A stretch of 64,000 nt of DNA from Eledone cirrhosa (GCA_964016885.1 OZ024744.1:121148001-121212000), one strand, 5' to 3'. Counted from the stretch's first letter, positions 1-64,000 are shown. The notes: a model not told the origin generated them from the sequence alone. Made by a program: numbers and translations.

Positions 1-1
1 A

Positions 2-91
2 GGAATAGAGGTAGTTATGGATGTTGTGAAGAGAGATAGTGTGAGATGGTTGGGTCATGTGTTGAGGAAGGATAAAAGTGACTGGGTGAGA
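2..91 (+). mobile_element. Representative monomer: probable fragment of an RTE-clade non-LTR retrotransposon ORF (region C-terminal to the RT domain); not an intact element
   Basis: Translation GIEVVMDVVKRDSVRWLGHVLRKDKSDWVR fits the pattern 'G(I/V)..(I/V)...(I/V)...RLRW(F/L)GHV.R......V' that precedes the 'G.R.RGRP...W' motif in RTE-like LINE proteins. This is the only + strand frame without stops. Recognised from family knowledge; no search was run. Confidence 0.75.
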
Positions 92-1719
92 GGAATAGAG
101 GTAGTGGTGGATGTTGTGAAGAGAGATAGTGTGAGATGGTTGGGTCATGTGTTGAGGAAGGATAAAAGTGACTGGGTGAGAAGAATAGAGGTAGTGACGG
201 ATGTTGTGAAGAGAGATAGTGTGAGATGGTTGGGTTATGTGTTGAGGAAGGATAAAAGTGAGTCGTCGAGAGGAATAGAGGTAGTGATGGATGTTGTGAA
301 GAGAGATAGTGTGAGATGGTTGGGTCATGTGTTGAGGAAGGATAAAAGCGACTGGGTGAGAGGAATAGAGGTAGTGACGAATGTTGTGAAGAGAGATAGT
401 GTGAGATGGTTGGCTCATGTGTTGAGGAAGGATAAAAGTGACTCGGTGAGAGGAATAGAGGTAGTGATGGATGTTGTGAAGAGAGATAGTGTGAGATGGT
501 TGGGTCATGTGTTGAGGAAGGATAAAAGTGACTGGGTGAGAGGAAAAGAGGTAGTGATGGATGTTGTGAAGAGAGATAGTGAGATGGTTGGGTCATGTGT
601 TGAGGAAGGATACAAGTGACTGGGTGAGAGGAATAGAGGTAGTGATGGATGTTGTGAAGAGAGATATGTGAGATGGTTGGGTCATGTGTTGAGGAAGGAT
701 AAAAGTGACTGGGTGAGAGGAATAGAGGTAGTGACGGATGTTGTGAAGAGAGATAGTGTGAGATGGTTGGGCCATGTGTTGAGGAAGGATAAAAGTGACT
801 CGGTGAGAGGAATAGAGGTAGTGATGGATGTTGTGAAGAGAGATAGTGTGAGATGGTTGGGTCATGTGTTGAGGAAGGATAAAAGTGACTGGGTGAGAAG
901 AATAGAGGTAGTGACGGATGTTGTGAAGAGAGATAGTGTGAGATGGTTGGGTCATGTGTTGAGGAAGGATAAAAGTGACTGGGTGAGAGGAATAGAGGTA
1001 GTGATGGATGTTGTGAAGAGAGATAGTGTGAGATGGTTGGGTCATGTGTTGAGGAAGGATAAAAGTGAGTCGTCGAGAGGAATAGAGGTAGTGATGGACG
1101 TTGTGAAGAGAGATAGTGTGAGATGGTTGGGTCATGTGTTGAGGAAGGATAAAAGTGAGTCGTCGAGAGGAATAGAGGTAGTGATGGATGTTGTGAAGAG
1201 AGATAGTGTGAGATGGTTGGGTCATGTGTTGAGGAAGGATAAAAGTGACTGGGTGAGAGGAATAGAGGTAGTGATGGATGTTGCGAAGAGAGATAGTGTG
1301 AGATGGTTGGGTCATGTGTTGAGGAAGGATAAAAGTGACTGGGTGAGAGGAATAGAGGTAGTGATGGATGTTGTGAAGAGAGATAGTGTGAGATGGTTGG
1401 GTCATGTGTTGAGGAAGTATAAAAGTGACTGGGTGAGAGGAATAGAGGTAGTGATGGATGTTGTGAGGAGAGATAGTGTGAGATGGTTGGGTCATGTGTT
1501 GAGGAAGTGTGAAAGTGACTGGGTGAGAGGAATAGAGGTAGAGATGGATGTTGTGAAGAGAGATAGTGTGAGAAGGTTGGGTCATGTGTTGAGGAGGGAT
1601 AAAATTGATTGTGTGAGAGGAATAGAGGTAGTGATGGATGTTGTGAAGAGAGATAGTGTGAGATGGTTGGGTCATGTGTTGAGGAAGGATAAAAGTGACT
1701 GGGTGAGAGGAATAGAGGT

Positions 1720-5020: not shown

Positions 5021-8000
5021 GACTGGGTGAGAGGAATCAGACGTAGTGATGGCTGTTGTGAAGAGAAATAGTGTGAGATGGTTGGGTCATGTGTTGAGGA
5101 AGGATAAAAGTGACTGGGTAAGAGGAATAGATGTAGTGATGCATGTTGAGAAAAGAGATAATGTGAGTTGGTTGGGTCATTTGTTGAGGAAGTATGAAAG
5201 TGACGGGCTGCGAGGAATAGAGGTAGTGATAGATGTTGTGAAGAGAGATAGTGTGAGATGGTTGGGTCATGTGTTGAGGAAGTATGAAAGTGACTGGGTG
5301 AGAGGAATAGAGGTAGAGATGGATGTTGTGAAGAGACATAGTCTGAGATGGTTGGGTCATGTGTTGAGGAAGTATGAAAGTGACAGGGTGAGAGGAATAG
5401 AGGTAGTGATGGATGTTGTGAAGAGAAATAGTGTGAGATGGTTGGGTCATGTGTTGAGGAAGTATGAATGTGACTGGGTGAGAGGAATAGAGGTAGTTAT
5501 GGATGTTGTGAAGAGAGATAGTGTGAGATGGTTGGGTCATGTGTTGAGGAAGGATAAAAGTGACTGGGTGAGAGGAATAGAGGTAGTGGTGGATGTTGTG
5601 AAGAGAGATAGTGTGAGATGGTTGGGTCATGTGTTGAGGAAGGATAAAAGTGACTGGGTGAGAAGAATAGAGGTAGTGACGGATGTTGTGAAGAGAGATA
5701 GTGTGAGATGGTTGGGTTATGTGTTGAGGAAGGATAAAAGTGAGTCGTCGAGAGGAATAGAGGTAGTGATGGATGTTGTGAAGAGAGATAGTGTGAGATG
5801 GTTGGGTCATGTGTTGAGGAAGGATAAAAGCGACTGGGTGAGAGGAATAGAGGTAGTGACGAATGTTGTGAAGAGAGATAGTGTGAGATGGTTGGCTCAT
5901 GTGTTGAGGAAGGATAAAAGTGACTCGGTGAGAGGAATAGAGGTAGTGATGGATGTTGTGAAGAGAGATAGTGTGAGATGGTTGGGTCATGTGTTGAGGA
6001 AGGATAAAAGTGACTGGGTGAGAGGAAAAGAGGTAGTGATGGATGTTGTGAAGAGAGATAGTGAGATGGTTGGGTCATGTGTTGAGGAAGGATACAAGTG
6101 ACTGGGTGAGAGGAATAGAGGTAGTGATGGATGTTGTGAAGAGAGATATGTGAGATGGTTGGGTCATGTGTTGAGGAAGGATAAAAGTGACTGGGTGAGA
6201 GGAATAGAGGTAGTGACGGATGTTGTGAAGAGAGATAGTGTGAGATGGTTGGGCCATGTGTTGAGGAAGGATAAAAGTGACTCGGTGAGAGGAATAGAGG
6301 TAGTGATGGATGTTGTGAAGAGAGATAGTGTGAGATGGTTGGGTCATGTGTTGAGGAAGGATAAAAGTGACTGGGTGAGAAGAATAGAGGTAGTGACGGA
6401 TGTTGTGAAGAGAGATAGTGTGAGATGGTTGGGTCATGTGTTGAGGAAGGATAAAAGTGACTGGGTGAGAGGAATAGAGGTAGTGATGGATGTTGTGAAG
6501 AGAGATAGTGTGAGATGGTTGGGTCATGTGTTGAGGAAGGATAAAAGTGAGTCGTCGAGAGGAATAGAGGTAGTGATGGACGTTGTGAAGAGAGATAGTG
6601 TGAGATGGTTGGGTCATGTGTTGAGGAAGGATAAAAGTGAGTCGTCGAGAGGAATAGAGGTAGTGATGGATGTTGTGAAGAGAGATAGTGTGAGATGGTT
6701 GGGTCATGTGTTGAGGAAGGATAAAAGTGACTGGGTGAGAGGAATAGAGGTAGTGATGGATGTTGCGAAGAGAGATAGTGTGAGATGGTTGGGTCATGTG
6801 TTGAGGAAGGATAAAAGTGACTGGGTGAGAGGAATAGAGGTAGTGATGGATGTTGTGAAGAGAGATAGTGTGAGATGGTTGGGTCATGTGTTGAGGAAGT
6901 ATAAAAGTGACTGGGTGAGAGGAATAGAGGTAGTGATGGATGTTGTGAGGAGAGATAGTGTGAGATGGTTGGGTCATGTGTTGAGGAAGTGTGAAAGTGA
7001 CTGGGTGAGAGGAATAGAGGTAGAGATGGATGTTGTGAAGAGAGATAGTGTGAGAAGGTTGGGTCATGTGTTGAGGAGGGATAAAATTGATTGTGTGAGA
7101 GGAATAGAGGTAGTGATGGATGTTGTGAAGAGAGATAGTGTGAGATGGTTGGGTCATGTGTTGAGGAAGGATAAAAGTGACTGGGTGAGAGGAATAGAGG
7201 TAGTGATGGATGTTGTGAAGAGAGATAGTGTGAGATGGTTGGGTCATGTGTTGAGGAGGGATAAAATTGATTGTGTGAGAGGAATAGAGGTAGTGATGGA
7301 TGTTGTGAAGAGAGATAGTGTGAGATGGTTGGGTCATGTGTTGAGGAAGGATAAAAGTGACTGGGTGAGAGGAATAGAGGTAGTGATGCATGTGGTGAAG
7401 AGAGATAGTGTGAGATGGTTGGGTCATGTGTTGAGGAAGGATAAAAGTGACTGGGTGAGAGGAATAGAGGTAGTGATGGATGTTGTGAAGAGAGATATGT
7501 GAGATGGTTGGGTCATGTGTTGAGGAAGGATAAAAGTGACTGGGTGAGAGGAATAGAAGTAGTGAAGGATGCTGTGAAGAGGGATAGTGTGAGATGGTTG
7601 GGTTATGTGTTGAGGAAGGATGAACGTAACTGGGTGAGAGGAATAGAGGTAGTGATGGATGTTGTGAAGAGAGATAGTGTGAGATGGTTAGGTCATGTGT
7701 TGAGGGAGGATAAAAGTGACTGGGTGAGATGAATAGAGGTAGTGATGGATGTTGTGAAGAGAGATAGTGTGAGATGGTTGGGTCATGTGTTGAGGAAGGA
7801 TAAAAGTGACTGGGTGAGAGAAATAGAGGTAGTGATGGATGTTGCGAAGAGAGATAGTGTGAGATGGTTGGGTCATGTGTTGAGGAAGGATAAAAGTGAC
7901 TGGGTGAGAGGAATAGAGGTAGTGATGGATGTTGTGAAGAGAAATAGTGTGAGATGGTTGGGTCATGTGTTGAGGAAGTATGAATGTGACTGGGTGAGAG

Positions 8001-8299
8001 GAATAGAGGTAGTTATGGATGTTGTGAAGAGAGATAGTGTGAGATGGTTGGGTCATGTGTTGAGGAAGGATAAAAGTGACTGGGTGAGATGAATAGAGGT
8101 AGTGATGGATGTTGTGAAGAGAGATAGTGTGAGATGGTTGGGTCATGTGTTGAGGAAGGATAAAAGTGACTGGGTGAGAGAAATAGAGGTAGTGATGGAT
8201 GTTGCGAAGAGAGATAGTGTGAGATGGTTGGGTCATGTGTTGAGGAAGTATGAATGTGACTGGGTGAGAGGAATAGAGGTAGTTATGGATGTTTTGAAG

Positions 8300-11200
8300 A
8301 GAGATAGTGTGAGATGGTTGGGTCATGTGTTGAGGAAGGATAAAAGTGACTGGGTGAGAGGAATAGAGGTAGTGATGGATGTTGCGAAGAGAGATAGTGT
8401 GAGATGGTTGGGTCATGTGTTGAGGAAGGATAAAAGTGACTGGGTGAGAGGAATAGAGGTAGTGATGGATGTTGTGAAGAGAGATAGTGTGAGATGGTTA
8501 GCTCATGTGTTGAGGAAGGATAAAAGTGACTGGGTGAGAGGAATAGAGGTTGTGATGGATGTTGTGAAGAGAGATAGTGTGAGATGGTTGGGTCATGTGT
8601 TGAGGAAGTATAAAAGTGACTGGGTGAGAGGAATAGAGGTAGTGATGGATGTTGTGAGGAGAGATAGTGTGAGATGGTTGGGTCATGTGTTGAGGAAGTG
8701 TGAAAGTGACTGGGTGAGAGGAATAGAGGTAGAGTTGGATGTTGTGAAGAGAGATAGTGTGAGAAGGTTGTGTCATGTGTTGAGGAAGTATGAAAGTGAC
8801 TGGGTGAGAGGAATAGAGGTAGTGATGGATGTTGTGAAGAGAGATAGTGTGAGATGGTTGGGTCATGTGTTGAGGAGGGATAAAATTGATTGTGTGAGAG
8901 GAATAGAGGTAGTGATGGATGTTGTGAAGAGAGATAGTGTGAGATGGTTGGGTCATGTGTTGAGGAAGGATAAAAGTGACTGGGTGAGAGGAATAGAGGT
9001 AGTGATGGATGTTGTGAAGAGAGATATGTGAGATGGTTGGGTCATGTGTTGAGGAAGGATAAAAGCGACTGGGTGAGAGGAATAGAGGTAGTGACGAATG
9101 TTGTGAAGAGAGATTGTGTGAGATGGTTGGGTCATGTGTTGAGGAAGGATAAAAGTGACTCGGTGAGAGGAATAGAGGTAGTGATGGATGTTGTGAAGAG
9201 AGATAGTGTGAGATGGTTGGGTCATGTGTTGAGGAAGGATAAAAGTGACTGGGTGAGAGGAATAGAGGTAGTGATGGATGTTGTGAAGAGAGATAGTGAG
9301 ATGGTTGGGTCATGTGTTGAGGAAGGATACAAGTGACTGGGTGAGAGGAATTGAGGTAGTGATGGATGTTGTGAAGAGAGATATGTTAGATGGTTGGGTC
9401 ATGTGTTGAGGAAGGATAAAAGTGACTGGGTGAGAGGAATAGAGGTAGTGATGGATGTTGTGAAGGGAGATAGTGTGAGATGATTGGCTCATGTGTTGAG
9501 GAAGTATGAAAGTGACTGGGTGAGAGGAATAGAAGTAGTGATGGATGTTGTGAAGAGAGATAGTGTGAGATGATTGGCTCATGTGTTGAGAAAGTATGAA
9601 AGTGACTGGGTGAGAGGAATAGAGGTAGTGATGGATGTTGTGAAGAGAGATAGTGTGAGATGGTTGGGTCATACGTTGAGTAAGGTTAAAAGTGACTGGG
9701 TGAGAGGAATAGAGGTAGTGATGGATGTTGTGAGGAGAGATAGTGTGAGATAGTTGGGTCATGTGTTGAGGAAGGATAAAAGTGACTGGGTGAGAGGAAT
9801 AGAGGTAGTGATGGATGTTGCGAAGAGACATAGTGTGAGATGGTTGGGTCATGTGTTGAGGAAGGATAAAAGTGACTCGGTGAGAGGAATAGAGGTAGTG
9901 ATGGATGTTGTGAAGAGAGATAGTGTGAGATGGTTAGCTCATGTGTTGAGGAAGGATAAAAGTGACTGGGTGAGAGGAATAGAGGTTGTGATAGATGTTG
10001 TGAAGAGAGATAGTGTGAGATGGTTGGATCATGTGTTGAGGAAGTATGAAAGTGACTGTGTGAGAGGAATAGAGGTAGTGATGGATGTTGTGAAGAGAGA
10101 TAGTGTGAGATGGTTGGGTCATATGTTGATGAAGGATAAAAGTGATTGGGTGAGAGGAATAGAGGTAGTGATGGATGTTGTGAGGTGAGATAGTGTGAGA
10201 TGGTTGAGTCATGTGTTGAGGAAGTGTGAAAGTGACTGGGTGAGAGGAATAGAGGTAGTAATAGATGTTGTGAAGAGAGATAGTGTGAGATGGTTGGGTC
10301 ATGTGTTGAGGAAGGATGAAAGTGACTGGGTGAGAGGAATAGAGGTAGTGATGGATGTTGTGAAGAGAGATAGTGTGAGATGGTTGGGTCATGTGTTAAG
10401 GAAGGATAAAAGTGACTGGGTGAGAGGAATAGAGGTAGTGATGGATGTTGTGAAGAAAGATAGTGTGAGATGGTTGGGTCATGTGTTAAGGAAGTATGAA
10501 TGTGACTGGGTGAGAGGAATAGAGATAGTGATGGATGTTGTGAAGAGAGATAGTGTGAGATAGTTGGGTCATGTGTTGAGGAAGGATAAAAGTGACTGGG
10601 TGAGAGGAATAGTGGTAGTGATGGATGTTGTAAAGGGAGATAGTGTGAGATGCTTGGGTCATGTGTTGAGGAAGTATAAAAGTGACTGGGTGAGAGGAAT
10701 AGAGGTAGTGATGGATGTTGTGAAGAGAGATAGTGTGAGATGGTTGGGTCCTGTGTTGAGGAAGGATGAATGTGACTGGGTGAGAGGAACAGAGGTAGTG
10801 ATGGATGTTGTGAAGAGAGATAGTGTGAGATGGTTGGGTCATGAGTTGAAGAAGGATAAAAGTGACTGGGTGAGAGGAATAGAGGTAGTGATGGATGTTG
10901 TGAAGAGAGATAGTGTGAGATGGTGGGTCATGTGTTAAGGAAGGATAAAAGTGACTGGGTGAGAGGAATAGATGTAGTTATGGATGTTGGGTAGAGAGAT
11001 AGTGTGAGATGGTTGGGTCATGTGTTAAGGAAGTATGAATGTGACTGGGTGAGAGGAATAGAGGTAGTTATGGATGTTGTGAAGAGAGATAGTGTGAGAT
11101 GGTTGGGTCATGTGTTGAGGAAGGATAAAAGTGACTGGGTGACAGGAATAGAAGTAGTGATGGATGCTGTGAAGAGAGATAGTGTGATATGGTTGGGTCA

Positions 11201-14200
11201 TGTGTTGAGGAAAGATGAAAGTGACTGGGTGAGAGGAATAGAGGTAGTGATGGATGTTGTGAAGAGAGATAGTGTGAGATGGTTGGGTCATGTGTTGAGG
11301 AAGGACAAAAGTGACTGGGTGAGAGGAATAGAGGTAGTGATGGATGTTGTGAAGAGAGATAGTGTGAGATGGTTGGGTCACGTGTTGAGGAAGGATTAAA
11401 GTGACTGGGTGAGAGGAATAGAGGTAGTGATCGATGTTGTGAAGAGAGATAGTGTGAGATGGTTGGGTCATGTGCTAAGGAAGGATAAAAGTGACTGGGT
11501 GAGAGGAATAGAGGTAGTGATGTATGTTGTGAAGAGAGATAGTGTGAGATGGTTGGGTCATGTGTTGAGGAAGGATAAAAGTGACTGGGTGAGAGGAATA
11601 GAAGTAGTGAAGGATGCTGTGAAGAGGGATAGTGTGAGATGGTTGGGTTATGTGTTGAGGAAGGATGAACGTAACTGGGTTAGAGGAATAGAGGTAGTGA
11701 TGGATGTTGTGAAGAGAGATAGTGTGAGATGGTTGGGTCATGTGCTAAGGAAGGATAAAAGTGACTGGGTGAGATGAATAGAGGTAGTGATGGATGTTGT
11801 GAAGAGAGATAGTGTGAGATGGTTGGGTCATGTGTTGAGGAAGGATAAAAGTGACTGGGTGAGAGAAATAGAGGTAGTGATGGATGTTGCGAAGAGAGAT
11901 AGTGTGAGATGGTTGGGTCATGTGTTGAGGAAGGATAAAAGTGACTGGGTGAGAGGAATCAGAGGTAGTGATGGATGTTGTGAAGAGAAATAGTGTGAGA
12001 TGGTTGGGTCATGTGTTGAGGAAGGAAAAAAGTGACTGGGTAAGAGGAATAGATGTAGTGATGCATGTTGAGAAAAGAGATAATGTGAGTTGGTTGGGTC
12101 ATTTGTTGAGGAAGTATGAAAGTGACGGGCTGAGAGGAATAGAGGTAGTGATAGATGTTGTGAAGAGAGATAGTGTGAGATGGTTGGGTCATGTGTTGAG
12201 GAAGTATGAAAGTGACTGGGTGAGAGGAATAGAGGTAGAGATGGATGTTGTGAAGAGACATAGTCTGAGATGGTTGGGTCATGTGTTGAGGAAGTATGAA
12301 AGTGACAGGGTGAGAGGAATAGAGGTAGTGATGGATGTTGTGAAGAGAAATAGTGTGAGATGGTTGGGTCATGTGTTGAGGAAGTATGAATGTGACTGGG
12401 TGAGAGGAATAGAGGTAGTTATGGATGTTGTGAAGAGAGATACTGTGAGAATGTTGGGTCATGTGTTGAGGAAGGATAAAAGTGACTGGGTGAGAGGAAT
12501 AGTGGTAGTGATGGATGTTGTAAAGGGAGATAGTGTGAGATGGTTGGGTCATGTGTTGAGGAAGTATAAAAGTGACAGGGTGAGAGGAATAGAGGTAGTT
12601 ATGGATGTTGTGAAGAGAGATAGTGTGAGATGGTTGGGTCATGTGTTGAGGAAGGATAAAAGTGACTGGGTGAGAGGAATAGATGTAGTGATGGATGTTG
12701 TGAAGAGAGATAGTGTGAGATGGTTGGGTCATGTGTTGAGGAAGGATAAAAGTGACTGGGTGAGAGGAATAGAAGTAGTGATGGATGTTGTGAAGAGAGA
12801 TAGTGTGAGATCGTTGGGTCATGTGTTGAGTAAGGATGAAAGTGACTGGGTGAGAGGAATAGAAGTAGTGATGGATGTTGTGAAGAGAGATAGTGTGAGA
12901 TGGTTGGGTCATGTGTTGAGGAAGCATAAACTGACTGGGTGAGAGGAATAGAGGTAGTGATGGATGTTGTGAAGAGAGATAGTGTGAGATGGTTGGGTCA
13001 TGTGTTGAGGAAGGATAAAAGTGACAGGGTGAGAGGAATAGATGTAGTGATGGATGTTGTAAGGAGAGATAGTGTGAGATGGTTGGGTAATGTGTTGAGG
13101 AAGTATGATAGTGACTGGGTGAGAGGAATAGAAGTAGTGATGGATGTTGTGAAGAGAGATAGTGTGAGATGGTTGGGTCATGTGTTGAGGAAGCATAAAC
13201 TGACTGGGTGAGAGGAACAGCGGTAGTGATGGATGTTGTGAAGAGAGATAGTGTGAGATGGTTGGGTCATGTGTTGAGGAAGGATAAAAGTGACTGGGTG
13301 AGAGGAATAGAGGTAGTGATGGATGTTGTGAAGAGAGATAGTGTGAGATGGTTAGGTCATGTGTTGAGGAAGGATAAAATTGACTGGGTGAGAGGAATAG
13401 AGGTAGTGACGGATGTTGTGAAGAGAGATAGTGTGAGATGGTTGGGTCATGTGTTGAGGAAGGATAAAAGTGACTCGGTGAGAGGAATAGAGGTAGTGAT
13501 GGATGTTGTGAAGAGAGATAGTGTCAGATGGATGGGTCATGTGTTGAGGAAGGATAAAAGTGACTGGGTGAGAGGAATAGAGGTAGTGATGGATGTTGCG
13601 AAGAGAGATAGTGTGAGATGGTTGGGTCATGTGTTGAGGAAGGATAAAAGTGACTGGGTGAGAGGAATAGAGGTTGTGATGGATGTTGCGAAGAGAGATA
13701 ATGTGAGATGGTTGGGTCATGTGTTAAGGAAGGATAAAAGCGACTGGGTGAGAGGAATAGAGGTAGTGATGGATGTTGTGAAGAGAGATAGTTTGAGATG
13801 GTTGGGTCATGTGTTAAGGAAGTATGAATGTGACTGGGTGAGAGGAATAGAGGTAGTTATGGATGTTGTGAAGAGAGATAGTGTGAGATGGTTGGGTCAT
13901 GTTCTGAGGAAGGATAAAAGTGACTCGGTGAGAGGAATAGAGGTAGTGATGGATGTTGTGAAGAGAGATAGTGTGAGATGGTTGGGTCATGTGTTGAGGA
14001 GGGATAAAATTGATTGTGTGAGAGGAATAGAGGTAGTGATGGATGTTGTGAAGAGAGATAGTGTGAGATGGTTGGGTCATGTGTTGAGGAAGGATAAAAG
14101 TGAGTGGGTGAGAGGAATAGAGGTAGTGATGGATGTTGTGAAGAGAGATAGTGTGAGATGGTTGGGTCATGTGTTGAGGAGGGATAAAATTGATTGGGTG

Positions 14201-23200: not shown

Positions 23201-23463
23201 ATGTGTTGAGGAAGTATAAAATTGACTGGGTGAGAGGAATAGTGGTAGAGATGGATGTTGTAAAGGGAGATAGTGTGAGATGGTTGGGTCATGTGTTGAG
23301 GAAGTATAAAAGTGTCTGGGTGAGAGGAATAGAGGTAGTGATGGATGTTGTGAAGAGAGATAGTGTGAGATGGTTGGGTCATGTGTTGAGGAAGGATGAA
23401 AGTGACTGGGTGAGATGGTTGGGTCCTGTGTTGAGGAAGGATGAAAGTGACTGGGTGAGAGGA
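8300..23463 (+). repeat. Higher-order duplication, offset 8134-8225 bp (~8300-15238 repeated at ~16434-23463)
   Basis: ORF pairs 8498/16632, 9310/17444, 10195/18329 and 11409/19543 are offset by 8134. Pairs 11968/20192 and 13208/21432 are offset by 8224 (one extra monomer). Pairs 14466/22691 and 14915/23140 are offset by 8225. Confidence 0.93.
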
Positions 23464-25745: not shown

Positions 25746-26059
25746 GTGGGTGAGAGGAATAGAGGTAGTGATGGATGTTGGGAAGAGAGATAGTGTGAGA
25801 TGGTTGGGTCATGTGTTGAGGAAGGTTGAATGTGAATGGGTGAGAGGAACAGAGGTAGTTATGGATGTTGCGAAGAGAGATAGTGTGAGATGGTTGGGTC
25901 ATGTGTTGAGGAAGGATAAAATGACTGTGTGTGAGGAATAGAGGTTTTGATGGATGTTGTGAAGAGAGATAGTGTGAGATGGTTGGGTCATGTTTTGAGG
26001 AAGGATAAAAGTGACTGGGTGAGTGGAATAGAGGTAGTGATGGATGTTGCAAAGAGAGA

Positions 26060-34923: not shown

Positions 34924-35013
34924 TGGTTGGGTCCTGTGTTGAGGAAGGATGAAAGTGACTGGGTGAGATGGTTGGGTCCTGTGTTGAGGAAGGATGAAAG
35001 TGACTGGGTGAGA
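34924..35013 (+). repeat. Tandem duplication of the 45-bp half-monomer (also at 15146-15235, 23371-23460, 25305-25394, 31015-31104, 57447-57536)
   Basis: The sequence reads tggttgggtcctgtgttgaggaaggatgaaagtgactgggtgaga twice in a row. The ORF track shows ...KDESDWVRWLGPVLRKDESDWVR.... Confidence 0.95.
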
Positions 35014-38000: not shown

Positions 38001-38464
38001 GATGTTGTGAAGAGAGATAGTGTGAGATGGTTGGGTCATATGTTGAGGAAGGATAAAAGTGACTGGGTGAGAGGAATAGAGGTAGTGATGGATGTTACGA
38101 AGAAAGATAGTGTGAGATGGTTGGGTCATGTGTTGAGGAAGTATGAAAGTGACTGGGTGAGAGGAATAGAGGTAGTGATAGATGTTGTGAAGACAGATAG
38201 TGTGAGATGGTTGGGTCATGTGTTGAGGAAGGATGAAAGTGACAGGGTGAGAGGAATAGAGGTAGAGATGGATGTTGTGAAGAGAGATAGTGTGAGAGGT
38301 TGGGTCATGTGTTGAGGAAGTATGAAAGTGACTGGGTGAGAGGAATAGAGGTAGAGATGGATGTTGTGAAGAGAGATAGTGTGAGATGGTTGTGTCATGT
38401 GTTGAGGAAGGATAAAACTGACTGGGTGAGAGGAATAGTGGTAGTGATGGATGTTGTAAAGGGA

Positions 38465-47043: not shown

Positions 47044-47789
47044 GGATAAAAGTGAGTGGGTGAGAGGAATAGAGGTAGTGATGGATGTTGTGAAGAGAGA
47101 TAGTGTGAGATGGTTGGGTCATGTGTTGAGGAGGAATAAAATTGATTGGGTGAGAGGAATAGAGATAGTGATGGATGTTGTGAAGAGAGATAGTGTGAGA
47201 TGGTTGGGTCATGTGTTGAGGAAGGATAAAAGTGAGTGGGTGAGAGGAATAGAGGTAGTGATGGATGTTGTGAAGAGAGATAGTGTGAGATGGTTGGGTC
47301 ATGTGTTGAGGAAGGTTGAATGTGAATGGGTGAGAGGAACAGTGGTAGTGATGGATGTTGCGAAGAGAGATAGTGTGAGATGGTTGGGTTATGTGTTGAG
47401 GAAGGATAAAAGTGACTGGGTGAGAGGAATAGAGGTTTTGATGGATGTTGTGAAGAGAGATAGTGTGAGATGGTTGGGTCATATGTTGAGGAAGGATAAA
47501 AGTGACTGGGTGAGAGGAATAGAGGTAGTGATGGATGTTGCGAAGAGAGATAGTGTGAGATGGTTGGGTCATGTGTTGAGGAAGTATGAAAGTGACTGGG
47601 TGAGAGGAATAGAGGTAGTGATAGATGTTGTGAAAAGAGATAGTGTGAGATGGTTGGGTCATGTGTTGAGGAAGGATAAAAGTGAGTGGGTGAGAGGAAT
47701 AGAGGTAGTGATGGATGTTGTGAAGAGAGATAGTGTGAGATGGTTGGGTCATGTGTTGAGGAAGGATAAAAGTGAGTGGGTGAGAGCAA

Positions 47790-50700: not shown

Positions 50701-52080
50701 GTGAGATGGTTGGGTCATGTGTTGAGGAGGAATAGAATTGATTGGGTGAGAGGAATAGAGGTAGTGATGGATGTTGTGAAGAGAGATAGTGTGAGATGGT
50801 TGGGTCATGTGTTGAGGAAGGATAAAAGTGAGTGGGTGAGAGGAATAGAGGTAGTGATGGATGTTGTGAAGAGAGATAGTGTGAGATGGTTGGGTCATGT
50901 GTTGAGGAAGGTTGAATGTGAATGGGTGAGAGGAACAGAGGTAGTGATGGATGTTGCGAAGAGAGATAGTGTGAGATGGTTGGGTCATGTGTTGAGGAAG
51001 GATAAAAGTGACTGGGTGAGAGGAATAGAGGTTTTGATGGATGTTGTGAAGAGAGATAGTGTGAGATGGTTGGGTCATATGTTGAGGAAGGATAAAAGTG
51101 ACTGGGTGAGAGGAATAGAGGTAGTGATGGATGTTGCGAAGAGAGATAGTGTGAGATGGTTGGGTCATGTGTTGAGGAAGTATGAAAGTGACTGGGTGAG
51201 AGGAATAGAGGAAGTGATAGATGTTGTGAAGACAGATAGTGTGAGATGGTTGGGTCATGTGTTGAGGAAGGATGAAAGTGACAGGGTGAGAGGAATAGAG
51301 GTAGAGATGGATGTTGTGAAGAGAGATAGTGTGAGAGGTTGGGTCATGTGTTGAGGAAGTATGAAAGTGACTGGGTGAGAGGAATAGAGGTAGAGATGGA
51401 TGTTGTGAAGAGAGATAGTGTGAGATGGTTGTGTCATGTGTTGAGGAAGGATAATCTGACTGGGTGAGAGGAATAGTGGTAGTGATGGATGTTGTAAAGG
51501 GAGATAGTGTGAGATGGTTGGGTCATGTGTTGAGGAAGTATGAAAGTGACTGGGTGAGAGGAATAGAAGTAGTGATAGATGTTGTGAAGAGAGATAGTGT
51601 GAGACGGTTGGGTCATGTGTTGAGGAAGTATGAAAGTGACTGGGTGAGAGGAATAGAGGTAGAGATGGATGTTGTGAAGAGAGATAGTGTGAGATGGTTG
51701 GGTCATGTGTTGAGGAAGTATGAAAGTGACTGGGTGAGCGAATAGAGGTAGTGATGGATGTTGTGAAGAGAGATAGTGTGAGATGGTTGGGTCATGTGTT
51801 GATGAGGGATAAAATTGATTGGGTGAGAGGAATAGAGGTAGTGATGGATGTTGTGAAGAGAGATAGTGTGAGATGTTTGGGTCATGTGTTGAGGAAGGAT
51901 TAAAGTGACTGGGTGAGAGGAATAGAGGTAGTGATGGATGTTGTGAAGAGAGATAGTGTGAGATGGTTGGGTCATGTGTTGAGGAAGGATAAAAGTGACT
52001 GGGTGAGAGGAATAGTGGTAGAGATGGATGTTGTAAAGGGAGATAGTGTGAGATGGTTGGGTCATGTGTTGAGGAAGTAT
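47790..52080 (+). repeat. ~2.8 tandem copies of a 1528-bp (17-mer) unit, type 2
   Basis: ORF series 48199/49727/51255, 48283/49811, 48648/50176/51703 and 48858/50386/51913. The last step is 1527 because of an extra 1-bp deletion near 51452. Confidence 0.92.
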
Positions 52081-55000
52081 AAAAGTGACTGGGTGAGAGG
52101 AATAGAGGTAGTGATGGATGTTGTGAAGAGAGATAGTGTGAGATGGTTGGGTCCTGTGTTGAGGAAGGATGAAAGTGACTGGGTGAGAGGAACAGAGGTA
52201 GTGATGGATGTTGTGAAGAGAGATAGTGTGAGATGGTTGGGTCATGTGTTGAGGAAGGATAAAAGTGACTGGGTGAGAGGAATAGAGGTTGTGATGGATG
52301 TTGTGAAGAGAGATAATGTGAGATGGTTGGGTCATGTGTTAAGGAAGGATAAAAGCGACTGGGTGAGAGGAATAGAGGTAGTGATGGATGTTGTGAAGAG
52401 AGATAGTTTGAGATGGTTGGGTCATGTGTTAAGGAAGTATGAATGTGACTGGGTGAGAGGAATAGAGGTAGTTATGGATGTTGTGAAGAGAGATAGTGTG
52501 AGATGGTTGGGTCATGTTCTGAGGAAGGATAAAAGTGACTCGGTGAGAGGAATAGAGGTAGTGATGGATGTTGTGAAGAGAGATAGTGTGAGATGGTTGG
52601 GTCATGTGTTGAGGAGGGATAAAATTGATTGTGTGAGAGGAATAGAGGTAGTGATGGATGTTGTGAAGAGAGATAGAGTGAGATGGTTGGGTCATGTGTT
52701 GAGGAAGGATAAAAGTGAGTGGGTGAGAGGAATAGAGGTAGTGATGTATGTTGTGAAGAGAGATAGTGTGAGATGGTTGGGTCATGTGTTGAGGAGGGAT
52801 AAAATTGATTGGGTGAGAGGAATAGAGGTAGTGATGGATGTTGTGAAGAGAGATAGTGTGAGATGGTTGGGTCATGTGTTGAGGAAGGATAAAAGTGAGT
52901 GGGTGAGAGGAATAGAGGTAGTGATGGATGTTGTGAAGAGAGATAGTGTGAGATGGTTGGGTCATGTGTTGAGGACGGTTGAATGTGAATGGGTGAGAGG
53001 AACAGAGGTAGTGATGGATGTTGCGAAGAGAGATAGTGTGAGATGGTTGGGTCATGTGTTGAGGAAGGTTAAAGTGACTGGGTGAGAGGAATAGAGGTAG
53101 TGATGGATGTTGCGAAGAGAGATAGTGTGAGATGGTTGGGTCATGTGTTGAGGAAGTATGAAAGTGACTGGGTGAGAGGAATAGAGGTAGTGATAGATGT
53201 TGTGAAGACAGATAGTGTGAGATGGTTGGGTCATGTGTTGAGGAAGGATGAAAGTGACTGGGTGAGAGGAATAGAGGTAGTGATGGATGTTGTGAAGAGA
53301 GATAGTGTGAGATGGTTGGGTCATGTGTTGAGGAAGTATGAAAGTGACTGGGTGAGCGAATAGAGGTAGTGATGGATGTTGTGAAGAGAGATAGTGTGAG
53401 ATGGTTGGGTCATGTGTTGAGGAGGGATAAAATTGATTGTGTGAGAGGAATAGAGGTAGTGATGGATGTTGTGAAGAGAGATAGTGTGAGATGGTTGGGT
53501 CATGTGTTGAGGAAGGATTAAAGTGACTGGGTGAGAGGAATAGAGGTAGTGATGGATGTTGTGAAGAGAGATAGTGTGAGATGGTTGGGTCATGTGTTGA
53601 GGAAGGTTAAAAGTGACTGGGTGAGTGGAATAGATGTAGTGATGGATGTTGTGAAGAGAGATAGTGTGGGACGTTTGGGTCATGTGTTGAGGAAGTATGA
53701 AAGTGACTGGGTGAGAGGAATCAGCGGTAGTGATGGATGTTGTGAAGAGAGATAGTGTGAGATGGTTGGGTCATGTGTTGAGGAAGGATAAAAGTGACTG
53801 TGTGAGAAGAATAGAGGTTTTGATGGATGTTGTGAAGAGAGATAGTGTGTGATGGTTGGGTCATGTGTTGAGGAAGGATAAAAGTGACTGGGTGAGAGGA
53901 ATAGAGGTAGTGATGGATATTGCGAAGAGAGATAGTGTGAGATGGTTGGGTCATGTGTTGAGGAAGGATAAAAGTGACTGGGTGAGAGGAATAGAGGTTT
54001 TGATGTATGTTGTGAAGAGAGATAGTGTGAGATGGTTAGCTCATTTGTTGAGGAAGGATAAAAGTAACTGGGTGAGAGGAATAGAGGTTGTGATGGATGT
54101 TGTGAAGAGAGATAGTGTGAGATGGTTGGGTCATGTGTTGAGGAAGTATGAAAGTAACTGGGGTGAGAGGAATAGAGGTAGTGATGGATGTTGTGAAGAG
54201 AGATAGTGTGAGATGGTTGGGTCATATGTTGAGGAAGGATAAAAGTGACTGGGTGGGAGGAATAGTGGTAGTGATGGATGTTGTAAAGGGAGATAGTGTG
54301 AGATGATTGGGTCATGTTTTGAGGAAGTATGAAAGTGACTGGGTGAGAGGAATAGAGGTAGAGATGGATGTTGTGAAGAGAGATAGAGTGAGATGGTTGG
54401 GTCATGTGTTGAGGAAGTATGAAAATGACTGGGTGAGGGAATAGAGGTAGTGATGGATGTTGTGAAGAGAGATAGTGTGAGATGGTTGGGTCATGTGTTG
54501 AGGAGGGATAAAATTGATTGGGTGAGAGGAATAGGGGTAGTGATGGATGTTGTGAAGAGAGATAGTGTGAGATGGTTGGGTCATGTGTTGAGGAGGGATA
54601 AAATTGATTGTGTGAGAGGAATAGAGATAGTGATGGATGTTGTGAAGAGAGATAGTGTGGGACGGTGGGTCATGTGTTGAGGAAGTATGAAAGTGACTGG
54701 GTGAGAGGAATAGAGGTAGTGATGGATGTTGTGAAGAGAGGTAGTGTGGGACGGTGGGTCATGTGTTGAGGAAGTATGAAAGTGACTGGGTGAGAGGAAT
54801 CACAGGTAGTGATGGATGTTGTGAAGAGAGATAGTGTGAGATGGTTGGGTCATGTGTTGAGGAAGGATAAAATTAGTGGGTGAGAGGAATAGAGGTAGTG
54901 ATGGATGTTGTGAAGAGAGATAGTGTGAGATGGTTGGGTCATGTGTTGAGGAAGGTTGAATGTGAATGGGTGAGAGGAACAGAGGTAGTGATGGATGTTG

Positions 55001-55929
55001 CGAAGAGAGATAGTGTGAGATGGTTGGGTCATGTGTTGAGGAAGGATAAAAGTGACTGGGTGAGAGGAATAGAGGTTTTGATGGATGTTGTGAAGAGAGA
55101 TAGTGTGAGATGGTTGGGTCATATGTTGAGGAAGGATAAAAGTGACTGGGTGAGAGGAATAGAGGTAGTGATGGATGTTGCGAAGAGAGATAGTGTGAGA
55201 TGGTTGGGTCATGTGTTGAGGAAGTATGAAAGTGACTGGGTGAGAGGAATAGAGGTAGTGATAGATGTTGTGAAGACAGATAGTGTGAGATGGTTGGGTC
55301 ATGTGTTGAGGAAGGATGAAAGTGACTGGGTGAGAGGAATAGAGGTAGAGATGGATGTTGTGAAGAGAGATAGTTTGAGAGGTTGGGTCATGTGTTGAGG
55401 AAGTATGAAAGTGACTGGGTGAGAGGAATAGAGGTAGAGATGGATGTTGTGAAGAGAGATAGTGTGAGATGGTTGTGTCATGTGTTGAGGAAGGATAAAA
55501 CTGACTGGGTGAGAGGAATAGTGGTAGTGATGGATGTTGTAAAGGGAGATAGTGTGAGATGGTTGGGTCATGTGTTGAGGAAGTATGAAAGTGACTGGGT
55601 GAGAGGAATAGAAGTAGTGATAGATGTTGTGAAGAGAGATAGTGTGAGATGGTTGGGTCATGTGTTGAGGAAGTATGAAAGTGACTGGGTGAGAGGAATA
55701 GAGGTAGAGATGGATGTTGTGAAGAGAGATAGTGTGAGATGGTTGGGTCATGTGTTGAGGAAGTATGAAAGTGACTGGGTGAGCGAATAGAGGTAGTGAT
55801 GGATGTTGTGAAGAGAGATAGTGTGAGATGGTTGGGTCATGTGTTGATGAGGGATAAAATTGATTGGGTGAGAGGAATAGAGGTAGTGATGGATGTTGTG
55901 AAGAGAGGTAGTGTGAGATGGTTGGGTCA

Positions 55930-58900
55930 TGTGTTAAGGAAGTATGAATGTGACTGGGTGAGAGGAATAGAGGTAGTTATGGATGTTGTGAAGAGAGATA
56001 GTGTGAGATGGTTGGGTCATGTTCTGAGGAAGGATAAAAGTGACTCGGTGAGAGGAATAGAGGTAGTGATGGATGTTGTGAAGAGAGATAGTGTGAGATA
56101 GTTGGGTCATGTGTTGAGGAGGGATAAAATTGATTGTGTGAGAGGAATAGAGGTAGTGATGGATGTTGTGAAGAGAGATAGTGTGAGATGGTTGGGTCAT
56201 GTGTTGAGGAAGGATAAAAGTGAGTGGGTGAGAGGAATAGAGGTAGTGATGGATGTTGTGAAGAGAGATAGTGTGAGATGGTTGGGTCATGTGTTGAGGA
56301 GGGATAAAATTGATTGGGTGAGAGGAATAGAGGTAGTGATGGATGTTGTGAAGAGAGATAGTGTGAGATGGTTGGGTCATGTGTTGAGGAAGGATAAAAG
56401 TGAGTGGGTGAGAGGAATAGAGGTAGTGATGGATGTTGTGAAGAGAGATAGTGTGAGATGGTTGGGTCATGTGTTGAGGACGGTTGAATGTGAATGGGTG
56501 AGAGGAACAGAGGTAGTGATGGATGTTGCGAAGAGAGATAGTGTGAGATGGTTGGGTCATGTGTTGAGGAAGGTTAAAGTGACTGGGTGAGAGGAATAGA
56601 GGTAGTGATGGATGTTGCGAAGAGAGACAGTGTGAGATGGTTGGGTCATGTTTTGAGGAAGTATGAAAGTGACTGGGTGAGAGGAATAGAGGTAGTTATA
56701 GATGTTGTGAAGACAGATAGTGTGAGATGGTTGGGTCATGTGTTGAGGAAGGATGAAAGTGACTGGTTGAGAGGAATAGAGGTAGAGATGGATGTTGTGA
56801 GGAGAGATAGTGTGAGATGGTTGGGTCATGTGTTGAGGAAGTATGAAAGTGACTGGGTGAGAGGAATAGAGGTAGAGATGGATGTTGTGAAGAGAGATAG
56901 TGTGAGATGGTTGGGTCATGTGTTGAGGAAGGATAAAACTGTCTGGGTGAGAGGAATAGTGGTAGTGATGGATGTTGTGAAGAGAGATAGTGTGAGATGG
57001 TTGGGTCATGTGTTGAGGAAGTATGAAAGTGACTGGGTGAGCGAATAGAGGTAGTGATGGATGTTGTGAAGAGAGATAGTGTGAGATGGTTGGGTCATGT
57101 GTTGAGGAGGGATAAAATTGATTGGGTGAGAGGAATTGAGGTAGTGATGGATGTTGTGAAGAGAGATAGTGTGAGATGTTTGGGTCATGTGTTGAGGAAG
57201 GATTAAAGTGACTTGGTGAGAGGAATAGAGGTAGTGATGGATGTTGTGAAGAGAGATAGTGTGAGATGGTTGGGTCATGTGTTGAGGAAGGATAAAATTG
57301 ACTGGGTGAGAGGAATAGTGGTAGAGATGGATGTTGTAAAGGGAGATAGTGTGAGATGGTTGGGTCATGTGTTGAGGAAGTATAAAAGTGTCTGGGTGAG
57401 AGGAGTAGAGGTAGTGATGGATGTTGTGAAGAGAGATAGTGTGAGATGGTTGGGTCCTGTGTTGAGGAAGGATGAAAGTGACTGGGTGAGATGGTTGGGT
57501 CCTGTGTTGAGGAAGGATGAAAGTGACTAGGTGAGAGGAACAGAGGTAGTGATGGATGTTGTGAAGAGAGATTGTGTGAGATGGTTGGGTGATGTGTTGA
57601 GGAAGGTTAAAAGTGACTGGGTGAGTGGAATAGAGGTAGTGATGGATGTTGTGAAGAGAGATAGCGTGGGACGGTTGGGTCATGTGTTGAGGAAGTATGA
57701 AAGTGACTGGGTGAGAGGAATCAGAGGTAGTGATGGATGTTGTGAAGAGAGATAGTGTGAGATGGTTGGGTCATGTGTTGAGGAAGGATAAAAGTTACTG
57801 GGTGAGAGGAATAGAGGTAGTGATGGATGTTGTGAAGAGAGATAGTGTGAGATGGTTGGGTCATGTGTTGAGTAAGGATAAAAGTGACTGGGTGAGAGGA
57901 ATAGAGGTAGTGATGGATGTTGTGAAGAGAGATAGTGTGAGATGGTTGGGTCATGTGTTGAGGAAGGATAAAAGTGAGTGGGTGAGAGGAATAGAGGTAG
58001 TGATGGATGTTGGGAAGAGAGATAGTGTGAGATGGTTGGGTCATGTGTTGAGGAAGGTTGAATGTGAATGGGTGAGAGGAACAGAGGTAGTTATGGATGT
58101 TGCGAAGAGAGATAGTGTGAGATGGTTGGGTCATGTGTTGAGGAAGGATAAAATGACTGTGTGAGAGGAATAGAGGTTTTGATGGATGTTGTGAAGAGAG
58201 ATAGTGTGAGATGGTTGGGTCATGTGTTGAGGAAGTATGAAAATGACTGGGTGAGGGAATAGAGGTAGTGATGGATGTTGTCAAGAGAGATAGTGTGAGA
58301 TGGTTGGGTCATGTGTTGAGGAGGGATAAAATTGATTGGGTGAGAGGAATAGAGGTAGTGATGGATGTTGTGAAGTGAGATAGTGTGAGATGGTTGGGTC
58401 ATGTGTTGAGGAAGGATAAAAGTGAGTGGGTGAGAGGAATAGAGATATTGATGGATGTTGTGAAGAGAGATAGAGTGAGATGGTTGGGTCATATGTTGAG
58501 GAAGGATAAAAATGAGTGGGTGAGAGGAATAGAGGTAGTGATAGATGTTGTGAAGAGAGATAGTGTGAGATGGTTGGGTCATGTGTTGAGAAAGTTTGAA
58601 AGTGACTGGGTGAGCGAATAGAGGTAGTGATGGATGTTGTGAAGAGAGATAGTGTGAGATGGTTGGGTCATGTGTTGAGGAGGGATAAAATTGATTGGGT
58701 GAGAGGAATAGAGGTAGTGATGGATGTTGTGAAGAGAGATAGTGTGAGATGGTTGGGTCATGTGTTGAGGAAGGATTAAAGTGACTGGGTGAGAGGAATA
58801 GAGGTAGTGATGGATGTTGTGAAGAGAGATAGTGTGAGATGGTTGGTTCATGTGTTGAGGAAGGTTAAAAGTGACTGGGCAAGTGGAATAGATGTAGTGA

Positions 58901-60300: not shown

Positions 60301-63300
60301 GAAGTATGAAAGTGACTGGGTGAGAGGAATAGAGGTAGAGATGGATGTTGTGAAGAGAGATAGTGTGAGATGGTTGGGTCATGTGTTGAGGAAGGATAAA
60401 ACTGACTGGGTGAGAGGAATAGTGGTAGTGATGGATGTTGTAAAGGGAGATAGTGTGAGATGGTTGGGTCATGTGTTGAGGAAGTATGAAAGTGACTGGG
60501 TGAGAGGAATAGAAGTAGTGATAGATGTTGTGAAGAGAGATAGTGTGAGATGGTTGGGTCATGTGTTGAGGAAGTATGAAATGACTGGGTGAGAGGAATA
60601 GAGGTAGAGATGGATGTTGTGAAGAGAGATAGTGTGAGATTGTTGGGTCATGTGTTGAGGAAGTATGAAAGTGACTGGGTGAGCGAATAGAGGTAGTGAT
60701 GGATGTTGTGAAGAGAGATAGTGTGAGATGGTTGGGTCATGTGTTGATGAGGGATAAAATTGATTGGGTGAGAGGAATAGAGGTAGTGATGGATGTTGTG
60801 AAGAGAGATAGTGTGAGATGGTTGGGTCATGTGTTGAGGAAGGATAAAAGTGACTGGGTGAGAGGAATAGTGGTAGAGATGGATGTTGTAAAGGGAGATA
60901 GTGTGAGATGGTTGGGTCATGTGTTGAGGAAGTATAAAAGTGACTGGGTGAGAGGAATAGAGGTAGTGATGGATGTTGTGAAGAGAGATAGTGTGAGATG
61001 GTTGGGTCATGTGTTGAGGAAAGTTAAAAGTGACTCGGTGAGTGGAATAGAGGTAGTGATGGATGTTGTGAGGAGAGATAGCGTGGGACGGTTGGGTCAT
61101 GTGTTGAGGAAGTATGAAAGTGACTGGGTGAGAGGAATCAGAGGTAGTGATGGATGTTGTGAAGAGAGATAGTGTGAGATGGTTGGGTCATGTGTTGAGG
61201 AAGGATAAAAGTTACTGGGTGAGAGGAATAGAGGTAGTGATGGATGTTGTGAAGAGAGATAGTGTGAGATGGTTGGGTCATGTGTTGAGTAAGGATAAAA
61301 GTGACTGGGTGAGAGGAATAGAGGTAGTGATGGATGTTGTGAAGAGAGATAGTGTGAGATGGTTGGGTCATGTGTTGAGGAGGGATAAAAGTGAGTGGGT
61401 GAGAGGAATAGAGGTAGTGATGGATGTTGGGAAAAGAGATAGTGTGAGATGGTTGGGTCATGTGTTGAGGAAGGATAAAAGTAACTGGGTGAGTGGAATA
61501 GAGGTAGTGATGGATGTTGCGAAGAGAGATAGTGTGAGATGGTTGGGTCATGTGTTGAGGAAGTATGAAAGTGACTGGGTGAGAGGAATAGAGGTAGAGA
61601 TGCATGTTGTGAAGAGAGATAGAGTGAGATGGTTGGGTCATGTGTTGAGGAAGTATGAAAGTGACTGGGTGAGAGAAATAGAGGTAGTGATGGATGTTGT
61701 GAAGAGATATAGTGTGAGATGGTTGGGTCATGTGTTGAGGAACGATAAAAGTGAGTGGGTGAGAGGAATAGTGGTATTGATGGATGTTGTGAAGAGAGAT
61801 AGAGTGAGATGGTTGGGTCATGTGTTGAGGAAGGATAAAAGTGACTGGGTGAGAGGAATAGAGGTAGAGATGGATGTTGTGAAGAGAGATAGTGTGAGAT
61901 GGTTGGGTCATGTGTTGAGGAAGTATGAAAGTGACTGGGTGAGAGGAATAGAGGTAGTGATAGATGTTGTGAAGACAGATTGTGTGAGATGGTTGGGTCA
62001 TGTGTTGAGGAAGGATAAAAGTGACTGGGTGAGAGGAATATAGGTAGAGATAGATGTTGTGAAGAGAGATAGTGTGAGATGGTTGAGTCATGTGTTGAGG
62101 AAGGATAAAAGTGACTGGGTGAGAGGAATAGTGGTAGTGATGGATGTTGTAAAGGGAGATAGTGTGAGATGGTTGGGTCATGTGTTGAGGAAGTATGAAA
62201 GTGACTGGGTGAGAGGAATAGAGGTAGTGATGGATGTTGTGAAGAGAGATAGTGTGAGATGGTTGGGTCATATGTTGAGGAAGGATAAAAGTGACTGGGT
62301 GAGAGGAATAGGGGTAGTGATGGATGTTGTGAAGAGAGATAGTGTGAGATGGTTGGGTCATGTGTTGAGGAGGGATAAAATTGATTGTGTGAGAGGAATA
62401 GAGGTAGTGATGGATGTTGTGAAGAGAGATAGTGTGGGACGGTGGGTCATGTGTTGAGGAAGTATGAAAGTGACTGGGTGAGAGGAATAGAGGTAGTGAT
62501 GGATGTTGTGAAGAGAGGTAGTGTGGGACGGTGGGTCATGTGTTGAGGAAGTATGAAAGTGACTGGGTGAGAGGAATCACAGGTAGTGATGGATGTTGTG
62601 AAGAGAGATAGTGTGAGATGGTTGGGTCATGTGTTGAGGAAGGATAAAAGTGACTGGGTAAGAGGAATAGATGTAGTGATGGATGTCGTGAAGAGAGATA
62701 GTGTGAGATGGTTGGGTCATGTGTTGAGGAAGGATACAAGTGAGTGGGAGAGAGGAATAGAGGTAGTGATAGATGTTGTGAAGAGAGATAGTGTGAGATG
62801 GTTGGGTCATGTGTTGAGGAAGTATGAAAGTGACTGGGTGAGAGGAATAGAGGTAGAGATGGATGTTGTGAAGAGAGATAGTGTGAGATGGTTGGGTCAT
62901 GTGTTGAGGAAGGATAAAAGTGACTGGGTGAGAGGAATAGAGGTAGTGATGGATGTTGTGAAGAGACATAGTGTGAGATGGTTGGTTCATATGTTGAGGA
63001 AGGATAAAAGTGAGTGGGTGAGAGGAATAGAGGTAGTGATAGATGTTGTGAAGAGAGATAGTGTGAGATGGTTGGGTCATGTGTTGAGGAAGTATGAAAG
63101 TGACTGGGTGAGAGGAATAGTGGTAGAGATGGATGTTGTGAAGAGAGATAGTGTGAGATGGTTGGGTCATGTGTTGAGGAAGTATGAAGGTGACTGGGTG
63201 AGCGAATAGAGGTAGTGATGGATGTTGTGAAGAGAGATAGTGTGAGATGGTTGGGTCATGTGTTGAGGAGGGATAAAATTGATTGGGTGAGAGGAATAGA

Positions 63301-64000
63301 GGTCGTGATGGATGTTGTGAAGAGAGATAGTGTGAGATGGTTGGGTCATGTGTTGAGGAAGGATTAAAGTGACTGGGTGAGAGGAATAGAGGTAGTGATG
63401 GATGTTGTGAAGAGAGATAGTGTGAGATGGTTGGGTCATGTGTTGAGGAAGGTTAAAAGTGACTGGGTGAGTGGAATAGAGGTAGTGATGGATGTTGTGA
63501 AGAGAGATAGTGTGAGATGGTTGGGTCATGTGTTGAGGAAGGATAAAAGTGAGTGGGTGAGAGGAATAGAGGTAGTGATGGATGTTGTGAAGAGAGATAG
63601 TGTGAGATGGTTGGGTCATGTGTTGAGGAAGGTTGAATGTGAATGGGTGAGAGGAACAGAGGTAGTGATGGATGTTGCGAAGAGAGATAGTGTGAGATGG
63701 TTGGGTCATGTGTTGAGGAAGGATAAAAGTGACTGGGTGAGAGGAATAGAGGTTTTGATGGATGTTGTGAAGAGAGATAGTGTGAGATGGTTGGGTCATA
63801 TGTTGAGGAAGGATAAAAGTGACTGGGTGAGAGGAATAGAGGTAGTGATGGATGTTGCGAAGAGAGATAGTGTGAGATGGTTGGGTCATGTGTTGAGGAA
63901 GTATGAAAGTGACTGGGTGAGAGGAATAGAGGTAGAGATGGATGTTGTGAAGAGAGATAGTGTGAGATGGTTGGGTCATGTGTTGAGGAAGGATAAAATT

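Follow-up and report, generated by a model that had tools for sequence, protein, structure and literature searches.

The 64,000-nt window analysed here (G000:C28:121,148,001-121,212,000, within a 3.0-Gb genome) lies inside a giant satellite, called satellite A below, whose 90-bp monomer is almost certainly derived, as judged by homology, from 30 codons of the open reading frame (ORF) of a long interspersed nuclear element (LINE) that appears to be RTE-like. The satellite probably originated in two steps, the tandem unit being seeded by a LINE source element and its retrotransposition and then amplified locally. A preliminary description of the window, made from its sequence alone, had proposed that a piece of LINE coding sequence was amplified into the array. 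The giant array is indeed present, but the tandem event was not a one-off, as the junction between units is widespread in the dispersed LINE family.

The 90-bp period detected by Tandem Repeats Finder spans positions 1-63,998 of the window, and 557 of its 687 anchored units are exactly 90 nt long, in agreement with the 30-codon monomer first described. The array, A1, far exceeds the lower bound of 64 kb given at that time: it runs on the + strand from about G000:C28:121,048,804 to 121,464,024 (415 kb, about 4,600 units), and an inverted twin, A2, occupies about C28:121,801,281-122,325,276 (524 kb), 337 kb from A1. The ends of both arrays were read and their interiors sampled in 2-10-kb pieces, every one of which was pure array. 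An exact 42-mer of the satellite matches the genome 3,686 times (1,385 forward, 2,301 reverse), and further large arrays are unlikely because this is about the number predicted from the sampled densities of A1 and A2. The two arrays share a consensus and differ in variant frequencies. Monomers in the window diverge by 3.7% from their own consensus, and exact 150-mers recur there at dominant offsets of 8,134, 1,528, 3,508, 1,934, 5,710 and 7,645 bp; these block offsets of 1.5-8 kb show recent local amplification of A1. The array thus has the properties of satellite DNA, namely long head-to-tail arrays, homogenised monomers and higher-order duplication.

In one + frame the array consensus translates as GIEVVMDVVKRDSVRWLGHVLRKDKSDWVR, as originally stated, and the remaining two + frames contain 7 and 3 stops per unit. 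Taken alone, the open frame is weak evidence for a coding origin of the monomer. Two of the three minus-strand frames are open as well and an open + frame arises in 17% of composition shuffles. The decisive evidence for a LINE origin is homology. When the monomer itself was searched against the host genome, as DNA and as protein, matches within the array swamped the results. A pattern of WLGHVLRKD codons with a downstream GRP has 34 dispersed matches on 15 contigs, against 0 for the reversed-pattern control, and the 20 matches that were fetched read ELQRMMGIEPVMNVVKRNGMRWLGHVLRKDESDWVRGVMEMNVEGSRGRGRP-like. This dispersed host family is colinear with the monomer from GIE to WVR and has different flanks, running on into GVMEMNVEGSRGRGRP, so that both the colinearity and the continuation toward an RGRP motif foreseen for the parent are borne out. 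A reverse transcriptase (RT) domain, RVT_1, is found upstream of the unit in the long copies L141 (E 2e-6) and L089 (E 1e-5), in both cases below the Pfam curated cut-off, and the dispersed copies are variably 5'-truncated, with 5' extents of 13-650 bp and beyond. With an RT colinear with the unit and dispersed 5'-truncated copies, the parent is a non-LTR (long terminal repeat) retrotransposon; its family numbers roughly thousands (2,345 first-look candidates). The satellite consensus differs from the majority of 60 single dispersed copies at 8 of 90 bases (8.9%) and those copies average 11.4% from the family majority. Because the monomers lie much closer to their own consensus than these values, the satellite was evidently amplified from an already decayed LINE copy.

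Related proteins point in the same direction as the dispersed copies. The RT piece of a host copy retrieves P0001-P0004 at 60-73% identity, and the 30-aa unit matches residues 542-571 of P0001, an RT-PHD protein, at 25 of 30 positions (83%) and residues 881-910 of P0002 at 22 of 30; the P0002 ORF ends 57 aa past the unit. P0001-P0004 and their cluster members are endonuclease-RT-PHD proteins of up to 1,091 aa, and the intact relatives, with AP (apurinic/apyrimidinic) endonuclease, RT and PHD domains, measure 967-1,091 aa. The nearest intact relatives, P0164 (1,060 aa) and P0168 (1,091 aa), have AP endonuclease and RT in a single ORF, and the representatives of their clusters are 60-67% identical to host copy L141, the host-copy sequence stopping short of the endonuclease. 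By a strict rule, 19 of 60 copies have a trimer tail, mostly GTT, at about 170-260 nt beyond the unit. The RTE-clade LINEs RTE-1, SR2 and SR3 (PMC1291365) and RTE-2_OV (PMC9115989) are characterized, in the passages of those papers that deal with element structure, by a single ORF of about 1,000-1,100 aa encoding AP endonuclease and RT; their 3' untranslated region (UTR) is short and ends in AT-rich trimer to pentamer repeats (PMC1291365). Relatives of the parent resemble these elements in ORF size, domains and a short 3' UTR with trimers, and differ from the elements as described there in carrying a PHD-type finger just after the RT. Because the ORF layout, short 3' end and trimer tail fit the description in PMC1291365, the architecture supports an RTE-like placement of the parent. 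The best PDB matches of a relative are L1 ORF2p and R2, and of 154 non-LTR relatives 83 contain a WxGH motif. Searching for homologues with a 103-aa piece of the parent gave no match. One cluster member is named 'craniofacial development protein 2-like', a name that is also given to BovB-type endonucleases. The 90% cluster of P0001, the closest relative, includes a hagfish protein, P0155; should the host be a mollusc, this would be a hint that the LINE family was transferred horizontally. The repeats of the genome tentatively suggest an octopod host.

The open frame raises the question of a functional repeat-protein gene, or of a LINE likeness due to chance, a reading that is now largely refuted and very improbable. 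It draws on the 501 of 687 window units (73%) that are both 90 nt long and stop-free, and on stop-free stretches that reach 866 codons elsewhere in the array. The array in the window is nevertheless not a single ORF (its longest stop-free + stretch is 473 codons), and its frequent stops and 89-bp units do not fit a continuous ORF under purifying selection. Distinct monomer variants comprise 111 nonsynonymous, 31 synonymous and 7 stop changes, where 110, 30 and 9 are expected; because this spectrum matches the neutral expectation, the reading frame is a neutral fossil under no selection. Survival of the frame is not informative either: it is still open in 65% of simulations with 8 random substitutions, and of the 60 dispersed copies, all dead, 17 have kept it. 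A Pfam scan of the unit found no family at the cut-off, and thus no better match to a cellular gene of the kind that the preliminary description had considered. Finally, the neighbouring sibling satellite (see below) has a stop in its consensus.

The unit boundary proposed from the window, WVR/GIE, recurs in dispersed LINE copies. The junction motif has 148 exact matches outside the satellite variant, against 0 for the control. For a sample that does not depend on the unit, all 60 matches of a 3'-flank motif were fetched: 9 copies are truncated before the unit, 36 carry one unit and 15 carry 2-8 units, one of the latter being a duplicate locus and one doubtful. A tandem unit is therefore present in 13-14 of 50 dispersed copies, about a quarter, and likewise in 7 of 19 copies of the GRP-pattern set, counted after 16 overlapping or duplicate loci had been dropped. 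Dispersed runs span 2 to about 97 units. LINE remnants enclose the larger arrays (about 8-97 units), several of which retain both flanks, and some of these arrays show secondary periods of 40-95 bp. By our own reading of the data, duplications elsewhere in the LINE are rarer, at 5 of 154 loci compared with 41 at the unit. The unit is thus a duplication hotspot of the dispersed family. In upstream parts of the parent LINE, L059, L074, L083, L238 and L239 carry tandem duplications of 85-124 bp, which suggest a preferred length scale near 90-100 nt.

The age of these runs was judged from divergence and from shared derived bases, leaving out gapped units and units more than 20-22% diverged; L221, a duplicate of L220, was dropped from the comparison of derived bases. 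At 18 loci with 2-5 units, divergence within a locus is 0.187, compared with 0.179 between single copies, and in 18 of the 27 short runs the shared fraction of derived bases does not exceed 0.17 (background 0.067). Because units within a locus are about as divergent as separate copies and share few derived bases, most short runs are as old as the insertion that carries them. A minority of short runs and the large arrays grew later by local duplication; within-locus divergence is 0.03-0.05 in two larger dispersed arrays and 0.12 in a third. The first 100 of the 192 junction matches, from 43 loci on contigs C1-C7, were tallied by hand. The junction measures 90 bp at 25 of these loci and 99 bp at 9, so that 34 of 43 are exactly one or the other, and both are in frame. 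Microhomology at the junction is 9/10 for the 99 register and 7/10 for the 90 register, and an exact 8/8 for an 87-bp register whose junction was not found in 154 loci. Out-of-frame microhomology junctions of 98 and 76 occur at one locus each of 32. Since the weakest register, 90, dominates and the exact 87 register is unseen, microhomology alone does not set the register of the junction.

These data suggest the following pathway. A source copy of this old LINE would have gained an in-frame tandem duplication around RWLGHV, with a 90- or 99-bp junction, and retrotransposition would have spread copies already carrying 2-5 units to many loci. In a second step, which is partly shown, some loci would have amplified locally to about 6-97 units after insertion and decay, and a decayed C28 variant with 8 private changes would have expanded by block duplication. 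The endpoint would be the roughly 940 kb in two inverted arrays on C28, with a neutral reading frame. A source element with an inherited in-frame duplication is also a rather probable account of the age of the runs, their register and the 30-codon length. If instead all duplications arose after insertion, at a steady rate, by slippage or repair between flanking microhomologies, divergence within loci should be about half of that between loci, and the two are equal; the dominance of the 90 register would likewise go without an account. This route is improbable. In its favour, it is known for human repeats derived from transposable elements (TEs) in the part of PMC3389668 that concerns their origin, and the 99-bp unit is flanked by a 9/10 microhomology. 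The larger arrays are also homogeneous (0.03-0.12), and in 9 of the 27 short runs the shared fraction of derived bases is 0.2-0.8 (pooled 0.237).

The shared derived bases in a third of the short runs also weigh against an inherited duplication, as do several other results. The copies examined include no full-length source element with the duplication. Nor did any of 659 tests of flank sites, on 18 versus 49 copies, distinguish multi-unit from single copies (best p 0.002), in a comparison for which only 3 of 29 multi-unit loci had adequate 5' flank. Unit number varies from 2 to 4 even where both flanks are intact, and the 90 and 99 junctions occur in different order at different loci, so that several sources, or instability of the repeat, would be needed. 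In-frame duplication of the motif is absent from all 83 motif-bearing relatives among the 154 proteins, two of which have distant repeats. The LINE 3' tail is missing from all four giant-array ends.

The main competitor of source inheritance is that every insertion creates its own duplication, with the RT jumping back about 90-99 nt on its RNA, or to a second RNA, at a preferred site. One would then expect runs as old as their insertions, no diagnostic flank sites, variable unit numbers and mixed junction orders. The few duplications elsewhere in the element and the separate 90-bp junction of a sibling family (see below) would fit as well. However, RT jumping does not explain why the weakly homologous 90 register prevails over the 99 and 87 registers, and the unit counts do not follow a geometric distribution (2 units at 5 loci versus at least 3 at 9, duplicate removed). 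The 5' ends of the copies are scattered, with no pile-up at the start of the unit, and the RNA fold of the region is no better than that of shuffles (z -1.0); the same two results rule against an RT pause site at the unit. On balance RT jumping at each insertion is unlikely, though clearly less so than slippage, and an inherited duplication followed by local amplification is preferred.

The preliminary description had expected RT or RGRP/tail parts of the parent at the array ends. This expectation failed: neither continuation is found at any of the four ends of A1 and A2, and only units in the ancestral state occur, at one end of A2. There, at the 5' edge, a truncated unit and a junction in the ancestral state are followed by an antisense sibling-LINE insertion and then by a partly ancestral unit that enters the array. 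Because ancestral-state units are kept at this edge, A2 is likely to be where the satellite was founded, with A1 as an inverted copy derived from it later. The coordinates of features in the window are collected in Table 1.

Table 1. Features of the 64,000-nt window (positions counted from its first nucleotide)
Feature	Position	Strand	Basis
Segment of satellite array A1	1..64000	+	90-bp monomers, 3.7% from consensus
Canonical monomer, 30 codons of the C-terminal part of a LINE ORF, after RT and PHD	1169..1258	+	25/30 P0001, 22/30 P0002, 82/90 nt host majority
RWLGHV fossil motif within the monomer	1211..1228	+	Consensus translation, dispersed copies
Unit junction WVR/GIE	1253..1267	+	Parent 3' context meets 5' context at shared GGA; also in dispersed copies
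Higher-order block duplications	8000..56000	+	Exact 150-mer offsets

A second 90-bp satellite begins 14 kb after A1, at about C28:121,478,316-121,591,947 (L033:7316 to L298:1947; 114 kb), and consists of 90/83-bp units. It derives from a sibling LINE family, the homologous RWYGHV region of sibling LINEs being 82-85% identical to its unit; relative to satellite A the unit is offset by 7 codons and is 54% identical in the overlap. The junction of this second satellite also occurs with both LINE flanks in arrays of 4-6 units on C17, C22 and C24 (L308, L310, L312), and in an array on C955 (L314-L316). Rare duplications thus do occur in the sibling family. None was found in 25 long copies (Fisher p 0.003), a sample biased to long, young copies, and with that bias duplication is much rarer there than in the parent family of satellite A. 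A younger sibling LINE family (L267-L291), retrieved in place of the parent by a search with P0003, is far more abundant (143,996 first-look candidates), retains open frames of more than 1,000 aa and has the same RT-PHD-RWYGH architecture. That a second family has converged on the same motif, again with a 90-bp unit, suggests a repeatable route. It is possible, though tentative, that RTE-like LINEs in this lineage carry a variable in-frame tandem repeat around RWxGH, within their ORF, that sows satellite seeds genome-wide, at least two families having independently given adjacent 90-bp satellites of 0.1-0.9 Mb by a repeatable pathway.

Satellites A1 and A2 sit among many other satellites on C28. 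The region 121-124.4 Mb is densely filled with unrelated ones (L184, L185, L188 and L030 among the loci), including repeats of 42 bp (L196-L176), 25 bp with TTAGGG (L177-L178, hence telomere-like hexamers) and 36 bp (L032:4620-5781), and this domain is possibly a centromere or fusion site. Satellites of 48 bp lie at L170, L189 and L028-L030; of these, L189 was tested and shares 76-77% identity with a stretch of the sibling LINE locus L278 that lies to the 3' side of the ORF, and these repeats may be a third LINE-derived satellite of the region. At 136 Mb, C28 breaks the size order of the numbered contigs; in some assemblies this marks a sex chromosome, and C28 may be a candidate for one. One public sequencing run, possibly of the same sample, contains the monomer at very high depth. 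Five runs with other organism labels, from four studies (X4, X6, X7, X8, X9), each contain a 120-nt contig that carries the satellite-specific bases, at a depth of 9-83; a collapsed 90-bp repeat would have this length at k=31, the value assumed for these contigs. Their presence could reflect either shared ancestry or contamination. No RNA run was listed as containing the monomer.

Satellites related to LINE ORF2 are known: PROsat (Phodopus, L1), the HinfI repeat (chicken, CR1) and Pvc 20 (seal, L1) are, like satellite A, tandem repeats with non-LTR retrotransposon coding sequence (PMC9659126). In the account of PROsat and HinfI given by that review the LINE is a small region or partial ORF of the repeat, whereas the whole monomer of satellite A is a 30-codon slice; the donor of satellite A is, moreover, RTE-like, and intermediates from 2 to about 5,800 units coexist. 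Internal repeats of Helitrons/Helentrons, miniature inverted-repeat TEs and an Ogre 3' UTR have also seeded satellites (DINE-TR1, CgHINE, miDNA4 and PisTR-A), and there too a mobile element disperses short arrays, which the same part of the review regards as the expected intermediates of large satellites (PMC9659126). In all of these the seed belongs to the non-coding portion of a DNA transposon or LTR element (PMC9659126), whereas that of satellite A lies inside a LINE ORF. Human multilocus TE-derived tandem repeats, including LTR12 and L1PA internal repeats, are similar, as far as the relevant sections of PMC3389668 extend, in having TE hotspots, repeats inherited or started at or after insertion, and larger arrays at fewer loci. 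Human Alu subfamilies reach a relative abundance of about 0.2-0.4 with arrays of few units (PMC3389668), whereas here about a quarter of copies are tandem, the junctions keep the reading frame and the array at one locus extends to about 0.9 Mb. No description of this satellite, or of any satellite from an RTE ORF, was found in the literature searched, a search to which Repbase and Dfam were external. TE-derived satellites are a known kind, and what is new is an unusually complete birth series together with a convergent neighbour.

Most TE-derived repeats have no known initiating mechanism, according to the portion of PMC3389668 that treats their origin, and how the first tandem duplication of a satellite comes about can usually not be seen. 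The present assembly contains the parent and the junction together with intermediates (2-97 units) and near-megabase arrays, and because all stages coexist, initiation and amplification can be dated separately. The system thus provides a direct test of source inheritance versus RT jumps. Arrays of this kind could also be misannotated as LINE proteins or repeat genes.

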